Assembly: GCA_039809265.1 (NCBI GenBank)
Contig: JBDHUR010000004.1
Location: 1 to 55,211 of the forward strand
Length of the DNA stretch: 55,211 nucleotides
Origin: Minisyncoccia bacterium
GTDB lineage: Bacteria; Patescibacteriota; Minisyncoccia; Phycocordibacterales; UBA9973
Direction: 5' to 3'
Shown: positions 11,577-46,404 of the stretch, one piece after another
Position numbering within the stretch: the stretch's first letter is position 1
How the letters are laid out: the number at the start of each line of letters is the position of its first letter
Position numbers and translations under genes: made by a program
The notes under the pieces: generated by a model
The model's input: the letters and a program-made list of their open reading frames with translations, nothing else
Databases searched by the model: none
What the model was told of the DNA's origin: nothing

Positions 11577-12146
11577 TTATTTTTTTGTCGTCTTTCGCGT
11601 AGCAGCTTTTCTCTTGCTATCTTTCAGCATCTGCACTTCTTGGATAAGCTCGGCAAGCTTGTCATGTATGTGGGACATTAGCGCTTCGTCTCTAGCTTTG
11701 TCTTCTTTTTCATAAGTTCCAACATCTTCAGTTATATCTTCCACGTCTTCGTTTATGTCTTCCACATCTTCTTGTATCTCGTCTATATCTTTTTCTATAC
11801 CTTCCACGTCCTCCTGGATTTCCTCCACGTCCTCTTGTATTTCTTCCACATCTTCTTGTATTTCTACAATGTCTTCTGAAACTTCGCGCAATCTCTTGGC
11901 CTGCCTGTTTACGGACATTTGGATAAAAATGGAAAGATAGATAGCTTCCAAAGAAACTATGGTGGTAAGTATGAGCAATACTTTATCAAATCCGACACCA
12001 GATATGGCGAGAAGCATCATGACCACAAAAAACACCGTGTGTGCTATGAGCGAGCGTGTGGAGCCTACCCACCTAGTTAGCACTACAGAGAGTTTCTCTA
12101 TATCTGTAGGCGGGCGTTTTGTTGTGATTTTTCTTTTTGGAGTCAT
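11577..12146 (-). CDS. DUF1003-like membrane protein with acidic heptad coiled coil
   Basis: WVGS...H.VFF; LTTIVSLEAIYLSIFIQMSVNRQ; (EDVEEIQ)n. Confidence 0.8.
   Translation of the reverse strand: MTPKRKITTKRPPTDIEKLSVVLTRWVGSTRSLIAHTVFFVVMMLLAISGVGFDKVLLILTTIVSLEAIYLSIFIQMSVNRQAKRLREVSEDIVEIQEDVEEIQEDVEEIQEDVEGIEKDIDEIQEDVEDINEDVEDITEDVGTYEKEDKARDEALMSHIHDKLAELIQEVQMLKDSKRKAATRKTTKK
11715..11880 (-). repeat. Degenerate 21-nt tandem repeat encoding acidic heptads
   Basis: About 7 units: EDIVEIQ EDVEEIQ EDVEEIQ EDVEGIE KDIDEIQ EDVEDIN EDVEDIT. Confidence 0.8.
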
Positions 12147-13250: not shown

Positions 13251-13252
13251 AG

Positions 13253-13283
13253 AAAAGCCCGCGAGATTCTCCGCGGGCTTTTT
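13253..13283 (+). terminator. Intrinsic terminator
   Basis: AAAAGCCCGCG/CGCGGGCTTTT. Confidence 0.8.
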
Positions 13284-13326: not shown

Positions 13327-16119
13327 ATGGAAAAATACGACCATAAAAAAATAGAGAAGAAATGGCAGGAGAAGTGGCGGGAAGATGGGATATATCGTAT
13401 CTCGGACAACGCGGATGAGAAGAAAAATTTCTATCAGCTTGTTGAGTTTAGCTATCCGTCTGGAAATCTGCATACCGGACATTGGTACGCGTTTGCAGTG
13501 CCTGATATCCATGCTCGCTTCAAGAGAATGAATGGCTACAATGTACTTTATCCAATGGGGTTTGATGCGTTCGGGCTTCCTGCGGAAAATGCAGCGATCA
13601 AAAACGGTGGTGATCCTGCTGAGTGGACAGAGCGCCAGATGGAAGCAATGCGCACGCAGCTGTGCAGTATGGGTGCGATGTTCGATTGGTCGCGCGAGGT
13701 GATCACGTGCAATCCCGAATACTACAAATGGACGCAGTGGATGTTTAACCAATTTTTAAAGCATGACCTCGTATACCGCGCTATCACGATGGTGAACTGG
13801 TGTCCGAAGGATCAAACCATTCTTGCAAACGAGCAAGTGGTCGACGGATGCTGCGAACGCTGCGGTACGCCGGTCGTGCAGCGCGAGCAGCCGCAATGGA
13901 TGCTCCGTATTACAAAGTATGCAGACCGACTTATCGATGATCTCGATACACTCGACTGGCCTGAGCAGATCAAAGCTGCACAGCGCAACTGGATCGGACG
14001 AAGCGAGGGAAGCGAGATAGAATTTAAAATAGACGGAACACAAGAAAAAATTAAAGTATTTACCACGCGTGCTGATACGCTCTTTGGAGTAACATATGTC
14101 GTGCTTGCGCCGGAGCATGAATTAGTTGAAAGTTTAAAGTCGAAAGTTGAAAGTGAAGAAAACAGAAAAGAAATAGAAGCATACATTGAACAAACAAAAC
14201 ACAAGCTCGAACTTGAACGCCAGCAGTCCAAAGAAAAAACAGGTGTCGAGCTCAAGGGCATCAAAGCGATCAACCCCGCGAACGGCGAAGCAGTACCCAT
14301 CTGGATTGCGGATTATGTGCTTGCAAATTACGGCACTGGCGCCGTTATGGCTGTTCCCGCACACGACGAAAGAGATTTTGAGTTTGCACAAAAATACAAT
14401 TTACCTATAAAAACAGTTGTTGTTTCAAATTACGAACCAATAACAAGAGTTACAGCGCTTTTAGTAAATAAAGATAAAGATCTCATTTTGCAATTATGGA
14501 ATAAAGAAGATGGTAAAAAACTTATTGGAAGATTTGGCGGCCATGTAGAAATAGGAGAGAATATTTTTGAAACGCTTAAAAGAGAAATGAAGGAAGAAAT
14601 TGAATTAGATATCAATAAACATTCATATTATTTTGCAGATTATTTAGATACGCATAAAGATGAAGGCGATATTTTGTTTGTTATTGAAGGTGTAGATGTA
14701 AGTACATTAAAACAGCATGAAGGACATGAAATAATTGAATTGCAAAAATATCTTCCAAATACTGAAGGATTATCTGAAAATACATTGAATGCTTGGAAAA
14801 AATATACAAGTAATTTATATAAAGCAGATGTAAGAGAAGGTATTCTTGTTAATTCGAGTCGGTTTGATGGATTATCTTCCGAAGAAGCACGCGTCAAAAT
14901 CACCGAATTCGTCGGTGGAAAATTGGTCAAAGCCTATCGATTGCGCGATTGGGGAATTTCGCGGCAGCGATACTGGGGCTGTCCCATACCTATTGTCTAT
15001 GATCCAGAAGGTACTGCGCATCCAGTGCCTGACGAACATTTTCCGTGGCTCTTACCGACCGATGTAGACCACACGCCCGATGGCACAGCGCCGCTTGCCC
15101 GCAGCCGCGAGCTTTTTGAGCGCACCGAAAAAATCTTTGGCAAAGGTTGGACACCGGAAGTTGAGACGATGGATACATTCGTAGATTCGTCGTGGTACTT
15201 CTATCGCTATTTGGATAACAAAAACAGTGAAGTCTTTGCAGCAACGGAAAAAATAAACGCGTGGATGCCAGTTGATTTTTATATTGGTGGAGCAGAACAT
15301 ACAACGATGCACTTGCTATATTCACGATTTTGGAATAAGGTGCTGCTTGATCTTGGTTTGGTAACTCAAAACGAACCTTATACAAAACGCATAAATCACG
15401 GAATTATTCTTGGCCCTGATGGAAACAAGATGTCAAAGTCAAAAGGAAACGTGGTTGATCCTGATGCAATTGTAGCTCAGCTCGGCGCTGATACAGTACG
15501 CCTCTATTTGGCATTTATGGGGCCGTATGAAGGCGGGAATTATCCATGGGATCCGAATGGCGTAGTCGGTGTACGCAGATTTTTGGAGCGTGTATGGAAA
15601 TTGAAAGAAAAAATTGATCCTGAGAAAAAAGTGTGCAAGACAGATCCGCTCGTGCATAAAACAATCAAAGGGGTTGGAGAAGATATTGAGCAATTCAAAT
15701 TCAACACTGCAATTTCAAAAATGATGATACTTTTGAACGCGCTTGAGAAAGAAGAAAAAATCGTGCTTGGTTCGTACAAAATACTTTTAAAACTTCTCGC
15801 GCCGTTTGCGCCGCATATTACAGAAGAATTGTGGCATGAACTGAGCGGCCTTTCGACAAGTGGGGAGCAGGTAGATAGCATTCATCTTACAAGTTGGCCG
15901 GAATATAACGAGACGAAAATTGTAGAAGAAAATATAAATGTTGCCGTTCAGGTCAATGGCAGGGTGCGCGCAGAGATTGTATTCTCGGCAGATGCTTCTG
16001 AAGATGAGATCAAATCAAAGGCTATGGAGCATGAAATGGTAAAGAAGTGGACAGAGGGTAAAGTGGTGAAGCGGGTGGTGTATGTGAAGGGCAGACTTGT
16101 TAACATTGTTGCCTCATAA
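13327..16119 (+). CDS. leuS: Leucine--tRNA ligase with inserted Nudix domain
   Basis: YPSGNLHTGH; GTGAVMAVPAHD; KMSKS; Nudix box at about 14536-14604. Confidence 0.97.
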   Translation: MEKYDHKKIEKKWQEKWREDGIYRISDNADEKKNFYQLVEFSYPSGNLHTGHWYAFAVPDIHARFKRMNGYNVLYPMGFDAFGLPAENAAIKNGGDPAEWTERQMEAMRTQLCSMGAMFDWSREVITCNPEYYKWTQWMFNQFLKHDLVYRAITMVNWCPKDQTILANEQVVDGCCERCGTPVVQREQPQWMLRITKYADRLIDDLDTLDWPEQIKAAQRNWIGRSEGSEIEFKIDGTQEKIKVFTTRADTLFGVTYVVLAPEHELVESLKSKVESEENRKEIEAYIEQTKHKLELERQQSKEKTGVELKGIKAINPANGEAVPIWIADYVLANYGTGAVMAVPAHDERDFEFAQKYNLPIKTVVVSNYEPITRVTALLVNKDKDLILQLWNKEDGKKLIGRFGGHVEIGENIFETLKREMKEEIELDINKHSYYFADYLDTHKDEGDILFVIEGVDVSTLKQHEGHEIIELQKYLPNTEGLSENTLNAWKKYTSNLYKADVREGILVNSSRFDGLSSEEARVKITEFVGGKLVKAYRLRDWGISRQRYWGCPIPIVYDPEGTAHPVPDEHFPWLLPTDVDHTPDGTAPLARSRELFERTEKIFGKGWTPEVETMDTFVDSSWYFYRYLDNKNSEVFAATEKINAWMPVDFYIGGAEHTTMHLLYSRFWNKVLLDLGLVTQNEPYTKRINHGIILGPDGNKMSKSKGNVVDPDAIVAQLGADTVRLYLAFMGPYEGGNYPWDPNGVVGVRRFLERVWKLKEKIDPEKKVCKTDPLVHKTIKGVGEDIEQFKFNTAISKMMILLNALEKEEKIVLGSYKILLKLLAPFAPHITEELWHELSGLSTSGEQVDSIHLTSWPEYNETKIVEENINVAVQVNGRVRAEIVFSADASEDEIKSKAMEHEMVKKWTEGKVVKRVVYVKGRLVNIVAS

Positions 16120-42990: not shown

Positions 42991-45900
42991 ATGGATGAAA
43001 AAAAACAATATAAATCAGAAAAAGCAGTAAGGGAAGAGAAAATCCTAGATTTTTGGCGCGAAAACAAGATTTTTGAAAAGACGCTTGCTCGTAAGTCTGT
43101 CAAAGGCGAGTTTGTCTTCTACGAGGGTCCTCCCGGAGCAAATGGAGTGCCGATGCTTCACCACTTTGAGGCGCGTGCATTCAAAGACGTTATACCTCGC
43201 TACAAGACAATGCAGGGCTACCATGTGGATAGACGCGCCGGCTGGGACTGCCATGGCTTGCCGGTGGAACTTCAAGCCGAAAAAGAGCTGGGCCTTGCTT
43301 CAAAAAAAGATATAGAGGTATACGGCGTTGCCAGATACAATGACTATTGCAGAAGCGCTGTTTTGCGTTATACAAAAGAATGGGAAATTTTTACGCATCG
43401 CATGGGGTACTGGGTGGACAACGATCGCGCATACTACACCATGTCTAACTCTTTCATAGAGTCTGCTTGGCATGTAGTGAAAGAAGCCGCGAACCGCGGG
43501 TATTTGTATAAAGATTATAAAATTCTGCCATGGTGTTCACGTTGCGGCACTGGTCTTTCCTCGCACGAGCTTGGTCAGCCAGGAGCATATGTGGATGTGA
43601 AGGATTTGTCAGTGTATGCCAAGTTTCCGATTGTTGGATTTGAAAAAGCTTATTTTGTGGCATGGACAACTACTCCTTGGACGCTTCCCGGAAATGTAGC
43701 GCTCGCAGTGGGTGCAGATATAGATTATGTAGAGGCAAAAGTCGGGGAAGAGATTCTAGTTGTTGCAAAAGAAAGATTGTCCGTGCTTGGCGAAGGATAT
43801 GAAATAATTGCTGAACACAAAGGCAAGGACATGGCTGGCATGAAGTACACGCCTCTTTTCAACGAGCTTGAGAATGCAAAACCAGACGGGATAGAAAATG
43901 CTTTCAAAATATATGTCGCGGATTTTGTAACAACGACAGACGGCACTGGCATCGTCCACACGGCTGTCATGTACGGGGCAGACGACTTTGAGCTTGGCAC
44001 AAAAGTTGGCTTGCCTAAATACCACACTGTAAATCCAGACGGCACTTTTATGCGAGGTCTCGGCAATCTTTCTGGCCGATTTGTCCGCGACGAAGATGTT
44101 GCTGTGGACATTATAAAGGACTTGGCTCATAGCGGGCTTCTATTTAAAAAAGAAAAATACGAACACTCGTACCCGCATTGCTGGAGATGTAAGACTCCAC
44201 TCATATACTATGCACGAGATTCTTGGTATTTTGCTATGTCAAAACTTCGCGATGAAATGTCTGCACGAAACGAAAGCATTCATTGGGAGCCCGAATATAT
44301 AAAGGACGGACGTTTTGGTGAGTGGCTACGTGAGGCTAAAGATTGGGCGATTTCGCGTGAGCGATACTGGGGCACTCCGTTGCCGGTTTGGCAGGGAGTT
44401 GGCGGTGAGCTGAAAGTTATTGGAAGCATAGAAGAATTTAAGAAGTATGCAGTAAAGTCTGGTAATAGTTACTTTATTATGCGTCACGGTGGTACGGAAG
44501 GAAACGAGAAAAATCTTGTTAGTTACAAAAACCAAGCCAGTGATCATTTGACTGAAAAAGGTAAACAACAAGTACTTTCTGAAATTGGTCATTTCAAAAA
44601 AGAAGGTATAGATATAATCATTGCTTCGCCATTTGCTCGTACTAGGGAAACTGCCGAAATTGTCCGCACCGAACTTGGGTTAGCAGAAGATGCATTGCTG
44701 TTTGACGATAGGCTTGCAGAAATAAACGCAGGAGATTTTGACGGCAAGAATTGGAACGAATACCACAAAGTTATATATGACGTGGGTGTAGATTGGTATA
44801 AGAACAAAATTCCAAACGGTGAGTCTTTGCAAGATGTTGGCAAGCGCATCGGTTCTTTGCTTTATGAAATTGAAGAGAAGTATAAAGATAAGCGTATTTT
44901 GCTGGTAACTCATGGCGGGCCGGCATGGCTTGCGTATGTGGTATCTGGAGAATATGTACCAGACGGCAAAACTTATCACATGCCAGAGACTATGGCATTT
45001 GTGAAAGAGTTCAAACGCTTTACCAACGCGGAAATACGTAAATTAAATTTTGTTCCCATACCACATAACACTAACTACGAGCTTGATCTGCACAAGCCGT
45101 ATGTGGATGAGGTAAAGCTCGTGGCTGAAAATGGGGAAGTAATGACAAGAGTAAAAGAGGTGATGGATGTATGGTTTGACTCCGGCGTTATGCCATTTGG
45201 GCAAGAGCATTATCCTTTTGAGAATAAGGAGTATGTGGATACCAAAGGCTATCCAGCAGACTTTATCTCTGAAGCGATAGATCAGACCAGAGGCTGGTTT
45301 TACACTTTGGTTGCGGTTTCTGCTTTGCTTGGTAAGCCTGCGCCATTTAAGAATGTAATCTGTCTCGGACACTTGCTGGATGCAAAAGGGCAGAAGATGT
45401 CAAAATCTAAAGGCAATGTCATAGACCCGTGGGGACAGATGGACAAATTTGGTGCGGACGCAGTGCGGCTGTGGATGTATTCTGTTACCCAGCCTGGGGA
45501 CAGCAAGAATTATGACGAAAAAGTGGTGACGGAAATGTCTCGACAAGTTTTCGGGCTGCTCTCAAATGTGCTAGCATTTTATGAGCTATATCCCGCAGAA
45601 ATGAAGAATAACAAGCGGCCAGACGCGACTGCCGTGCTCAACAAGTGGATACTTGCAAGACTAGACCAGTATATATCTCTGACCACAGAGTATTTGGATG
45701 CATACAAAATATTTGAGCCTGCCCGCGAACTTCGCAACTTCATAGACGATCTTTCTACATGGTATGTGCGCCGAAGTAGAGACAAGATCAAGGCAGGTGA
45801 TATAGAATCTAGAACGACCTTGTATTTTGTACTAAAAACCCTTGCACAAGTCATGGCGCCATTTGCACCGTTTACCGCAGAAGAAGTGTGGCAGAAACTA

Positions 45901-46404
45901 AAGATAAATGAAGACGCAGAAAGCGTGCATCTAAGTGTATGGCCTACCAGCGATGCTTTGCAATATGACGATATGGTCGGACATAATATTATGCGTGATA
46001 TGCAAATAGCAAGAGAAGTATGTACTGAAGGCAATGCGCTTCGCAAAAAACTAGGTATACCAGTGCGTCAACCTCTTTCTAGGTTTATTGTAAAGAACTG
46101 GGACTTAAGTAGCGAGTATGCAACTCTTGTAAAAGAAGAACTTAATGTAAAAGATATTGTAGCAGGAGACGAGACGGTGCTTGATATAAACATAACACCA
46201 GAGCTAAAACTTGAAGGAGATTATCGCGAACTTGTGCGAAAGGTACAAGACTTACGAAAAGAAAAAGGTCTAATTCCAAGTGACGCTATAACTCTTGTGC
46301 TTCCAGAAACGTATCGAGAAATTATGCAAACTTTCGGTGAAGATTTGAAAAAGACAGTCGGTGCAAAAGAGGTTGTAAATGGAGAGAATATGCTAATATA
46401 TTAA
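42991..46404 (+). CDS. ileS: Isoleucine--tRNA ligase (type 2-like) with inserted histidine-phosphatase domain
   Basis: FYEGPPGAN; GWDCHGLP; WTTTPWTLP; KMSKS; insert RHG...THG at about 44461-45050. Confidence 0.96.
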   Translation: MDEKKQYKSEKAVREEKILDFWRENKIFEKTLARKSVKGEFVFYEGPPGANGVPMLHHFEARAFKDVIPRYKTMQGYHVDRRAGWDCHGLPVELQAEKELGLASKKDIEVYGVARYNDYCRSAVLRYTKEWEIFTHRMGYWVDNDRAYYTMSNSFIESAWHVVKEAANRGYLYKDYKILPWCSRCGTGLSSHELGQPGAYVDVKDLSVYAKFPIVGFEKAYFVAWTTTPWTLPGNVALAVGADIDYVEAKVGEEILVVAKERLSVLGEGYEIIAEHKGKDMAGMKYTPLFNELENAKPDGIENAFKIYVADFVTTTDGTGIVHTAVMYGADDFELGTKVGLPKYHTVNPDGTFMRGLGNLSGRFVRDEDVAVDIIKDLAHSGLLFKKEKYEHSYPHCWRCKTPLIYYARDSWYFAMSKLRDEMSARNESIHWEPEYIKDGRFGEWLREAKDWAISRERYWGTPLPVWQGVGGELKVIGSIEEFKKYAVKSGNSYFIMRHGGTEGNEKNLVSYKNQASDHLTEKGKQQVLSEIGHFKKEGIDIIIASPFARTRETAEIVRTELGLAEDALLFDDRLAEINAGDFDGKNWNEYHKVIYDVGVDWYKNKIPNGESLQDVGKRIGSLLYEIEEKYKDKRILLVTHGGPAWLAYVVSGEYVPDGKTYHMPETMAFVKEFKRFTNAEIRKLNFVPIPHNTNYELDLHKPYVDEVKLVAENGEVMTRVKEVMDVWFDSGVMPFGQEHYPFENKEYVDTKGYPADFISEAIDQTRGWFYTLVAVSALLGKPAPFKNVICLGHLLDAKGQKMSKSKGNVIDPWGQMDKFGADAVRLWMYSVTQPGDSKNYDEKVVTEMSRQVFGLLSNVLAFYELYPAEMKNNKRPDATAVLNKWILARLDQYISLTTEYLDAYKIFEPARELRNFIDDLSTWYVRRSRDKIKAGDIESRTTLYFVLKTLAQVMAPFAPFTAEEVWQKLKINEDAESVHLSVWPTSDALQYDDMVGHNIMRDMQIAREVCTEGNALRKKLGIPVRQPLSRFIVKNWDLSSEYATLVKEELNVKDIVAGDETVLDINITPELKLEGDYRELVRKVQDLRKEKGLIPSDAITLVLPETYREIMQTFGEDLKKTVGAKEVVNGENMLIY

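Follow-up and report, generated by a model that had tools for sequence, protein, structure and literature searches.

Bacterial leucyl-tRNA synthetases (LeuRS), the Nudix superfamily and aminoacyl-tRNA synthetases with appended domains are already known, and several described systems resemble parts of the locus reported here. Domain-accreted class I synthetases, such as the isoleucyl-tRNA synthetase (IleRS)-N-acetyltransferase NF040702, carry an in-frame small-molecule enzyme on a class Ia synthetase. Inteins and homing elements are in-frame inserts whose position in an essential gene is fixed and highly conserved; they move horizontally and are patchily distributed among relatives. Capsule and O-antigen loci, as well as the target-recognition domains of hsdS, hold divergent AT-rich alleles that are reshuffled among close strains via conserved flanks. 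Here, a Nudix domain of 138 residues, referred to as the cassette, is described inside leuS, the LeuRS gene, of a Minisyncoccia bacterium (Patescibacteriota; GenBank assembly GCA_039809265.1). The window is the whole stretch of DNA that was analysed, 55,211 nucleotides of contig JBDHUR010000004.1 (positions 1 to 55,211, forward strand). The reading favoured here, and judged likely, is that the cassette is a probably catalytic Nudix domain in the CP1 loop of an intact LeuRS, that the loop is an old slot subject to allele-like exchange, and that the domain serves as a tethered accessory enzyme.

Each of these likenesses has its limits. The window itself also encodes an accreted IleRS, bearing a histidine phosphatase; in comparison with the accreted IleRS, the LeuRS module lies inside CP1, occurs in ~16% of the phylum and is swapped between genes. 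In contrast to inteins, the cassette lacks splicing residues, a Hint domain and an endonuclease; it remains part of the mature protein and is under selection at the protein level. Whereas capsule, O-antigen and hsdS systems involve gene clusters or specificity subunits, the LeuRS unit is one protein domain inside one essential gene. Bacterial LeuRS of solved structure (Thermus thermophilus 1H3N/2BTE, Escherichia coli 4AQ7/5ON2) share with the window's enzyme the full-length fold together with the HIGH-type, KMSKS, Thr-rich and editing Asp motifs, but the solved LeuRS listed in the fold search have nothing at the loop of residues ~365-378, where an enzyme domain is found here. Free-standing MutT-like Nudix proteins (Rickettsia felis 4KYX, E. 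coli MutT 1MUT, NudG 2RRK, 8WV3/9JAX) have the same box, size (~130-150 aa) and order of elements; unlike them, the cassette is nested in another enzyme, its termini a few residues apart in the host loop. Full-text literature searches returned no LeuRS-Nudix fusion, no enzyme nested in CP1 and no description of allele-like replacement, and a paper on HIT hydrolases acting against peptide-nucleotide antibiotics proved to be on a different subject.

The host open reading frame (ORF) encodes a bacterial-type LeuRS of 930 aa on the forward strand (13327..16119). TIGR00396, the equivalog hidden Markov model for bacterial LeuRS, matches at 956.5 bits (cut-off 548.4), its alignment being broken into two stretches at residue 368, and the Pfam LeuRS editing model PF13603 is split as well, residues 220-369 covering profile positions 1-144 of 185. 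The insert is exactly 138 in-frame codons (14422-14835, residues 366-503), lying between ...YNLPIKTVV and EGILVNS; the segment that follows it (14836..15006) aligns with T. thermophilus LeuRS residues 375-457, and in the sequence alignment the insert replaces a short CP1 loop at T. thermophilus residues ~365-378. The LeuRS motifs HTGH (49-52), TTRADT (246-251), AHDERD (345-350) and KMSKS (701-705) are invariant or nearly so among 93 relatives. An AlphaFold2 model of the whole protein, built from the alignment of 93 sequences, has a mean predicted local distance difference test score (pLDDT) of 91 and a predicted template modelling score (pTM) of 0.83, and a Foldseek search with it returned only LeuRS, with the E. 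coli and T. thermophilus enzymes at template modelling (TM) scores of 0.79/0.85 and E = 1e-80. The host LeuRS is otherwise intact and single-copy, and the insert sits in a surface loop of CP1.

The first-pass annotation, made from the sequence without database searches, had proposed an in-frame Nudix domain near the end of the LeuRS editing domain, and this is borne out. The insert alone matches PF00293 NUDIX at 41.6 bits (cut-off 21.1, E = 1.5e-10) over insert residues 9-120. At residues 405-427 (nt 14539-14607) it has a Nudix box, GHVEIGENIFETLKREMKEEIEL, that conforms to GX5EX7REUXEE, and in the extended form G405-x5-E411-x7-R419-E420-M-K-E423-E424-I-E-L only the last Gly is changed, to Glu (XGU to IEL). 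In the AlphaFold2 model with alignment, the insert forms strands at 374-406, the box helix at 413-425, strands at 433-472 and a helix at 484-494, with pLDDT mostly 80-91. E411, R419, E420, E423 and E424 are all kept within the window's cassette type, here called short, and the strict box is retained in 101 of the 115 LeuRS cassettes compared (88%) at an overall identity of ~25%. Judged on these sequence features, the cassette is probably a complete, folded and catalytic MutT-like Nudix pyrophosphohydrolase domain.

As to substrate, the best profile matches in the PDB are a Rickettsia 'ADP-ribose pyrophosphatase MutT', ADP-ribose pyrophosphatases, MutT and CTP pyrophosphohydrolase (E 6e-10 to 2e-6), while NCBIfam matches are weak and confined to the box region. 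Signatures of particular substrate classes were looked for in the cassette and none is present; nor does any other sequence motif in it point to a substrate. A Tyr ~16-18 residues past the Nudix box is said to mark the subfamily acting on diadenosine polyphosphates (ApnA). The window's cassette has Tyr at +7, +8 and +12 and none at +16 to +18, and the consensus of the long cassette type has Y-F at +17; both observations serve as leads only. Similarly, a Pro ~15-16 residues past the box reportedly marks the ADP-ribose pyrophosphatase subfamily, and the window's cassette has Thr/His at +15/+16, although ADP-ribose pyrophosphatases are nonetheless among its best profile matches.

Insertion of a Nudix domain at this position is neither rare nor confined to close kin. 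A profile made of the upstream flank and the first half of the Nudix domain was run on an even sample of the phylum (401 genomes), and a Nudix domain was found at this exact LeuRS site in 63 (~16%, roughly one in six). These are full-length matches (E <= 2e-25) in ORFs of ~650-1800 aa from many families and several classes, and the remaining genomes match the flank only. A search with the region gave more than 100 LeuRS clusters (at 90% identity) with PF00293, named Nomurabacteria, Paceibacterota, Pacebacteria or Patescibacteria where a name is given, all with 125-160 extra residues between the same two anchors. About half of the 40 nearest relatives carry a Nudix cassette, and LeuRS of ~800-850 aa without one occur in the same family. 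Boxed Nudix domains were also found at the same LeuRS site in a few metagenome-assembled genomes (MAGs) labelled Clostridia (L041, a 142-kb contig) or Bacilli (L044), going by those labels. Many Patescibacteria make use of this site, an intragenic slot of old standing.

Other positions in LeuRS also take up domains. This was noted in the LeuRS of relatives (P0025, P0107, P0062, P0108, P0017, P0079 and P0039). A second hot spot near the start of CP1 (~residue 240 of the window's LeuRS) holds a DUF559/restriction endonuclease-like, HAD, ASCH or further Nudix domain. An alpha/beta serine hydrolase occurs at a third LeuRS site, and in one LeuRS the main site is occupied by a tandem pair of Nudix domains.

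The evidence for exchange comes from comparing the cassette with the protein around it. Over 115 LeuRS, the identity of the backbones does not correlate with that of the cassettes (r = 0.076): the cassettes are less than 35% identical in 18 of the 32 pairs whose backbones are at least 80% identical, and the backbones less than 60% identical in 16 of the 39 pairs whose cassettes are at least 70% identical. The closest cassettes to that of the window are those of P0004-P0007 (75-79% identical over 138 aa), and in P0004, P0005 and P0006 the cassettes are 78-79% identical to the window's while the LeuRS cores are only ~50% identical. Conversely, P0055, P0084 and P0029 have cores ~80% identical to the window's with Nudix domains that are 23-28% identical and of different length. 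The neighbouring genes follow the backbone and not the cassette, with identities to the genomes of P0004-P0006 of 55-57% for DUF5671 and 42% for MurJ. In a genome of the same genus with the same gene order (G001), DUF5671 is 76%, MurJ 81% and the LeuRS core 72-78% identical to the window's, whereas the cassette is 176 aa long and 24% identical. The first-pass annotation had asked whether sister taxa hold variable cargo at this site, and they do. A few LeuRS have non-Nudix inserts there, and the window's 138-aa type appears, by these sequence comparisons, to have replaced a different Nudix domain after the split from its same-genus relative.

Trees of 50 sequences, made for cassette and backbone separately, agree with the pairwise comparison. 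The five LeuRS with the window's cassette type form one clade in the cassette tree (support 100) and fall into three well-supported clades in the backbone tree. Forcing the five together on the backbone tree costs 1262 log-likelihood units (approximately unbiased (AU) test, p = 1.6e-44), and the converse constraints, imposed on the cassette tree, are likewise rejected by the AU test. Overall, the incongruence between cassette and backbone rests on many independent genomes. Separately, loci L002-L028, from the same GTDB family and order, contain two deep LeuRS backbone types, ~75% and ~50% identical to the window's; the presence of both within one family suggests whole-gene replacement of leuS too.

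These results bear directly on the possibility that the cassette descends vertically from an ancient single insertion and that the apparent swapping is an artefact of fast evolution or rate variation. Every LeuRS with the insert has it at one and the same site, the Nudix box is shared, a YF...HK-D/N-E motif, read by eye, is apparently common to both cassette types, and there are no strongly supported branches against a single origin, all of which fits a shared ancestry. However, fast evolution cannot make a cassette (78-79%) more conserved than its core (~50%) and flanking genes (42-57%), sister backbones that are 87-96% identical carry cassettes that are 25% identical and of different length, and congruence fails the AU tests whichever tree is constrained. 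Strictly vertical descent is accordingly regarded as very unlikely.

The borders of the exchanged segment are sharp. In the sister pairs P0004/P0044 and P0005/P0035, with backbones 87% identical, similarity drops right after ...LPIKTV(V/I) and returns at (E)GILVNS. L036 and L037 are syntenic loci that come from different samples. Their identity is 100.0% along 5029 nt, ending at the GAVMA codons just ahead of AHDERD; past that point their cassettes (160 vs 157 aa, 25% identical) are unalignable, and identity downstream is 92-95% for at least 5 kb. This breakpoint, and an AT-rich tract in the window's leuS that reaches into both flanks, make homologous recombination through the conserved flanks the most likely route of exchange, as far as breakpoints and composition can tell. 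Under the mechanism proposed, whole cassettes would be exchanged between leuS genes as alleles by homologous recombination, with crossovers in the conserved flanks, GTGAVMAVPAHDERDFEFAxKYxLPIK upstream and G-I-L-V-N-S downstream.

An assembly chimera or a conventional selfish insert (an intein, an intron or the remnant of an insertion sequence) might also produce a foreign segment in leuS, and the abrupt change of composition at the borders would suit either. The exact protein, however, is found on 4 contigs and five same-length variants on 19 more (NCBI, ENA and Logan), so that the LeuRS is seen on 23 contigs from three sources, the variants differing at 1-3 positions, all near the C-terminus. 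The reading frame is open, and the AlphaFold2 model is confident for a continuous protein. An intein signature is absent, as had been noted from the sequence: the insert starts with VSNY and ends with ADVR, the next residue is Glu, and there is no HN and no match to a Hint family. Pfam detects no nuclease, transposase or endonuclease domain within the 138 aa, Rfam has no match for the insert, the repeats at the cassette borders are short and at chance level with no terminal repeats beyond it, and no internal promoter or terminator stands out. This explanation is hardly credible.

The cassette is strongly AT-rich relative to the rest of the gene, in agreement with the first reading of the sequence, and the GC and codon profile has now been computed. 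G+C content is 0.278 in the insert and 0.456 in the rest of leuS, and at third codon positions (GC3) 0.138 vs 0.46. When 1547 coding windows of the same 138-codon length are taken across the genome (mean 0.38, standard deviation 0.08), the GC3 of the insert falls at their 0.3 percentile. The intergenic GC of the genome (0.372) lies above the cassette GC3. In a fit with two change points, the AT-rich tract spans codons 348-521 (nt 14368-14889, 2*dLL = 74), with support for a start at codons 345-359 and an end at 507-524; the tract therefore begins within the conserved AHDERDFEFAQKY flank and stops shortly past EGILVNS. The only other coding regions of GC3 as low (0.09-0.18) are G000 C3:30555-36837 and C8:4169-5066, which are probably horizontally acquired islands.

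The same bias is found elsewhere. In 7 moderately GC-rich hosts, both cassette types have a GC3 of 0.14-0.25 vs 0.30-0.64 in the leuS flanks, and of 18 relatives all but one have a cassette with more AT than the gene around it, usually by a smaller margin. Cassette GC (0.28-0.36) is less variable than host-gene GC (0.37-0.51). In one carrier, L032, AT-richness extends to the whole host (GC 0.34), which its cassette matches. Relaxed constraint was rejected as the cause of low GC3, given that the poorly conserved C-terminal domain has a GC3 of 0.47, intergenic GC is 0.37 and the IleRS insert is at 0.35. A rare-codon or translational-pause reading was rejected too, as the cassette uses the commonest codons of the genome (value akin to the codon adaptation index 0.82 vs mean 0.744, standard deviation 0.026). 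Recency fails as well: synonymous divergence is saturated, and sister genes have resident cassettes of the long type that match this AT-richness. A continuing flux out of an AT-rich pool may be the explanation, and is the one favoured.

The first-pass annotation proposed that the module was recently acquired, which is only partly borne out. Among the five copies of the window's cassette type, synonymous divergence (dS) is 1.1-2.9 and saturated, nonsynonymous divergence (dN) is 0.12-0.24 and dN/dS is 0.06-0.14. The low ratio shows purifying selection on the cassette protein, and the saturation means that the transfers are not recent in absolute terms. Acquisition is recent only in so far as the type was exchanged after the split from the same-genus relative; the copies themselves are well diverged and the architecture, present in 63 of 401 genomes, is old. 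AT-richness cannot be taken as evidence of recency, because both cassette types are AT-rich in all 7 moderately GC-rich hosts. As for the origin of the cassette, a word-based donor search with the cassette alone gave no match, and an exhaustive search gave free-standing Nudix proteins at most ~43-44% identical, plus spurious repeat proteins. A joint tree with free-standing Nudix proteins did not settle between one capture and several.

Several observations weigh against the favoured reading of a catalytic, exchangeable tethered enzyme. The clades for the AU tests were defined with the trees already in view, which makes the p-values optimistic, albeit for a very large effect. Most comparison sequences are metagenome contigs, and single mosaics such as L037 could be assembly chimeras; in the material compared, no recombination intermediate or dedicated machinery was seen. 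AT-richness persists despite saturated dS, which a single transfer followed by amelioration does not explain. The PDB profile matches are mixed in specificity and the sequence gives no substrate. Furthermore, 14 of the 115 cassettes are without the strict box, some being altered at catalytic positions, and three LeuRS (P0118, P0119 and L015, the last from genome G014 of the same family) hold inserts of 117-132 aa exactly at the Nudix site, in which no Pfam family and no Nudix box was found. From the latter two observations it follows that catalysis is dispensable for LeuRS itself, that is for leucylation. They are also what would be expected if the Nudix fold were a non-catalytic module, serving in nucleotide sensing, in binding of tRNA or a partner, or as a spacer that modulates CP1 movement, and the many relatives without an insert, along with the change of the window's final box Gly to Glu, point the same way. 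Nevertheless, 88% of the cassettes have preserved every metal-binding and catalytic residue of the box in the face of ~25% overall identity, including all five acidic and Arg positions in the window's own type, and a purely non-catalytic role is considered quite unlikely.

The diversity of the cassettes raises the question of what maintains it. One alternative to the favoured reading is an immunity or conflict module, in which Nudix alleles are kept diverse by balancing or diversifying selection, each hydrolysing different toxic nucleotide-like molecules, for instance aminoacyl-adenylate mimics or nucleotide signals, with LeuRS or tRNA-Leu as the target. Such a role would suit alleles ~25% identical in near-identical backbones (87-96%), the occurrence of short and long types both within two small backbone clades, a persistent AT-richness typical of horizontally circulating variable loci, and purifying selection on the cassette protein. 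LeuRS is, moreover, a known target of adenylate-mimic antibiotics, and 3ZGZ is its complex with the toxic moiety of agrocin 84. The locus itself offers little in this direction, since no linked toxin, signal or partner gene was found among neighbours that are housekeeping genes (DUF5671, MurJ, TPR), PADLOC not having been searched, and the evidence on selection consists of dN/dS only. Known adenylate-mimic toxins have phosphoramidate or sulfamoyl links, which are not known to be cleaved by Nudix enzymes, and this too counts against the idea. On balance an immunity module is unlikely. A broader proposal, put forward tentatively and with more doubt than confidence, is that the CP1 loop acts as an intragenic 'cassette port' for a circulating pool of AT-rich enzyme domains, which balancing or diversifying selection might keep diverse, perhaps against nucleotide-like toxins or signals aimed at the translation apparatus.

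If the cassette is a tethered accessory enzyme, as favoured here, the Nudix domain would act on a nucleoside-diphosphate-X compound and not in amino-acid proofreading. Candidate substrates would be dinucleoside polyphosphates made by synthetases, ADP-ribose and non-canonical nucleoside triphosphates. That it clears diadenosine tetraphosphate (Ap4A) or damaged nucleotides is possible but unsupported. A search of the genome for other Ap4A-degrading enzymes found no YqeK, no ApaH and one HIT protein, which speaks neither for nor against a role in Ap4A degradation. PF00293 has two matches only in the genome, the LeuRS cassette and a NusB-Nudix fusion on another contig; a Nudix gene standing alone is absent. 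In relatives, the number of Nudix matches per genome is 1-14.

Other fusions of this kind were noted in passing. At G000 C8:6132-7031 lies a 300-aa ORF with a NusB-like N-terminus, as read by eye from the sequence, and a C-terminal Nudix domain; ORFs of ~300-320 aa with a Nudix match are present in many of the 40 relatives, and the NusB-Nudix fusion looks conserved. The IleRS of the window (42991-46404, 1137 aa) has an in-frame histidine-phosphatase-like insert at 44461-45050, whose GC3 of 0.35 vs 0.44 and 0.40 in the flanks shows no strong AT dip.

The features of leuS are collected in Table 1. Next to the gene, between it and the DUF5671 gene, there is a perfect 12-bp G+C-rich hairpin at 13252-13283 with T-runs on both strands, which looks like a bidirectional terminator. 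On the reverse strand, positions 11577-12146 hold an ORF of 189 aa that contains a long acidic repeat (EDVEEIQEDVE...); the same-genus genome has it beside DUF5671-leuS too, at 79% identity over 92 aa.

Table 1. Positions in the window of leuS, its Nudix cassette and associated motifs
Feature	Coordinates	Strand	Evidence
leuS, host gene of the insert	13327..16119	+	TIGR00396, AlphaFold2, Foldseek
HIGH-type motif HTGH of the synthetic site, residues 49-52	13471..13482	+	H49, G51 and H52 nearly invariant in 93 LeuRS
CP1 editing domain upstream of the insert, residues 220-365	13984..14421	+	PF13603 positions 1-144 of 185
Thr-rich editing motif TTRADT	14062-14079	+	T246, T247, R248 and T251 invariant
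AHDERD editing motif	14359-14376	+	D347 and D350 invariant
AT3-rich tract (GC3 0.138 inside, 0.475 outside)	14368..14889	+	Change-point fit; cassette plus ~18 flank codons on each side
Nudix cassette, 138 aa, 'short' type, residues 366-503	14422..14835	+	PF00293, AlphaFold2, dN/dS
Nudix box GHVEIGENIFETLKREMKEEIEL	14539..14607	+	Strict box in 101/115 LeuRS cassettes
Distal QHEGHE motif	14713..14730	+	E100 and G101 (cassette numbering) invariant among short-type cassettes
C-terminal part of CP1, then catalytic body (EGILVNS...RLRDWGISRQRYWG)	14836..15006	+	Second stretch of TIGR00396 and PF13603
KMSKS, residues 701-705	15427..15441	+	K701, S703 and K704 invariant

Few enzymes are as conserved or as well studied as the aminoacyl-tRNA synthetases, and here a whole second enzyme is nested in the editing domain of one of them. 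An allele-like swap of that enzyme in near-identical genes would be an unusual mode of evolution, a horizontal exchange at the level of the domain that proceeds without inteins or the machinery of mobile elements. Furthermore, as the genome has no free-standing Nudix gene and only the fusions to LeuRS and NusB, these fusions may reveal how ultra-small cells lay out their nucleotide housekeeping, organised around the machinery of translation and transcription.

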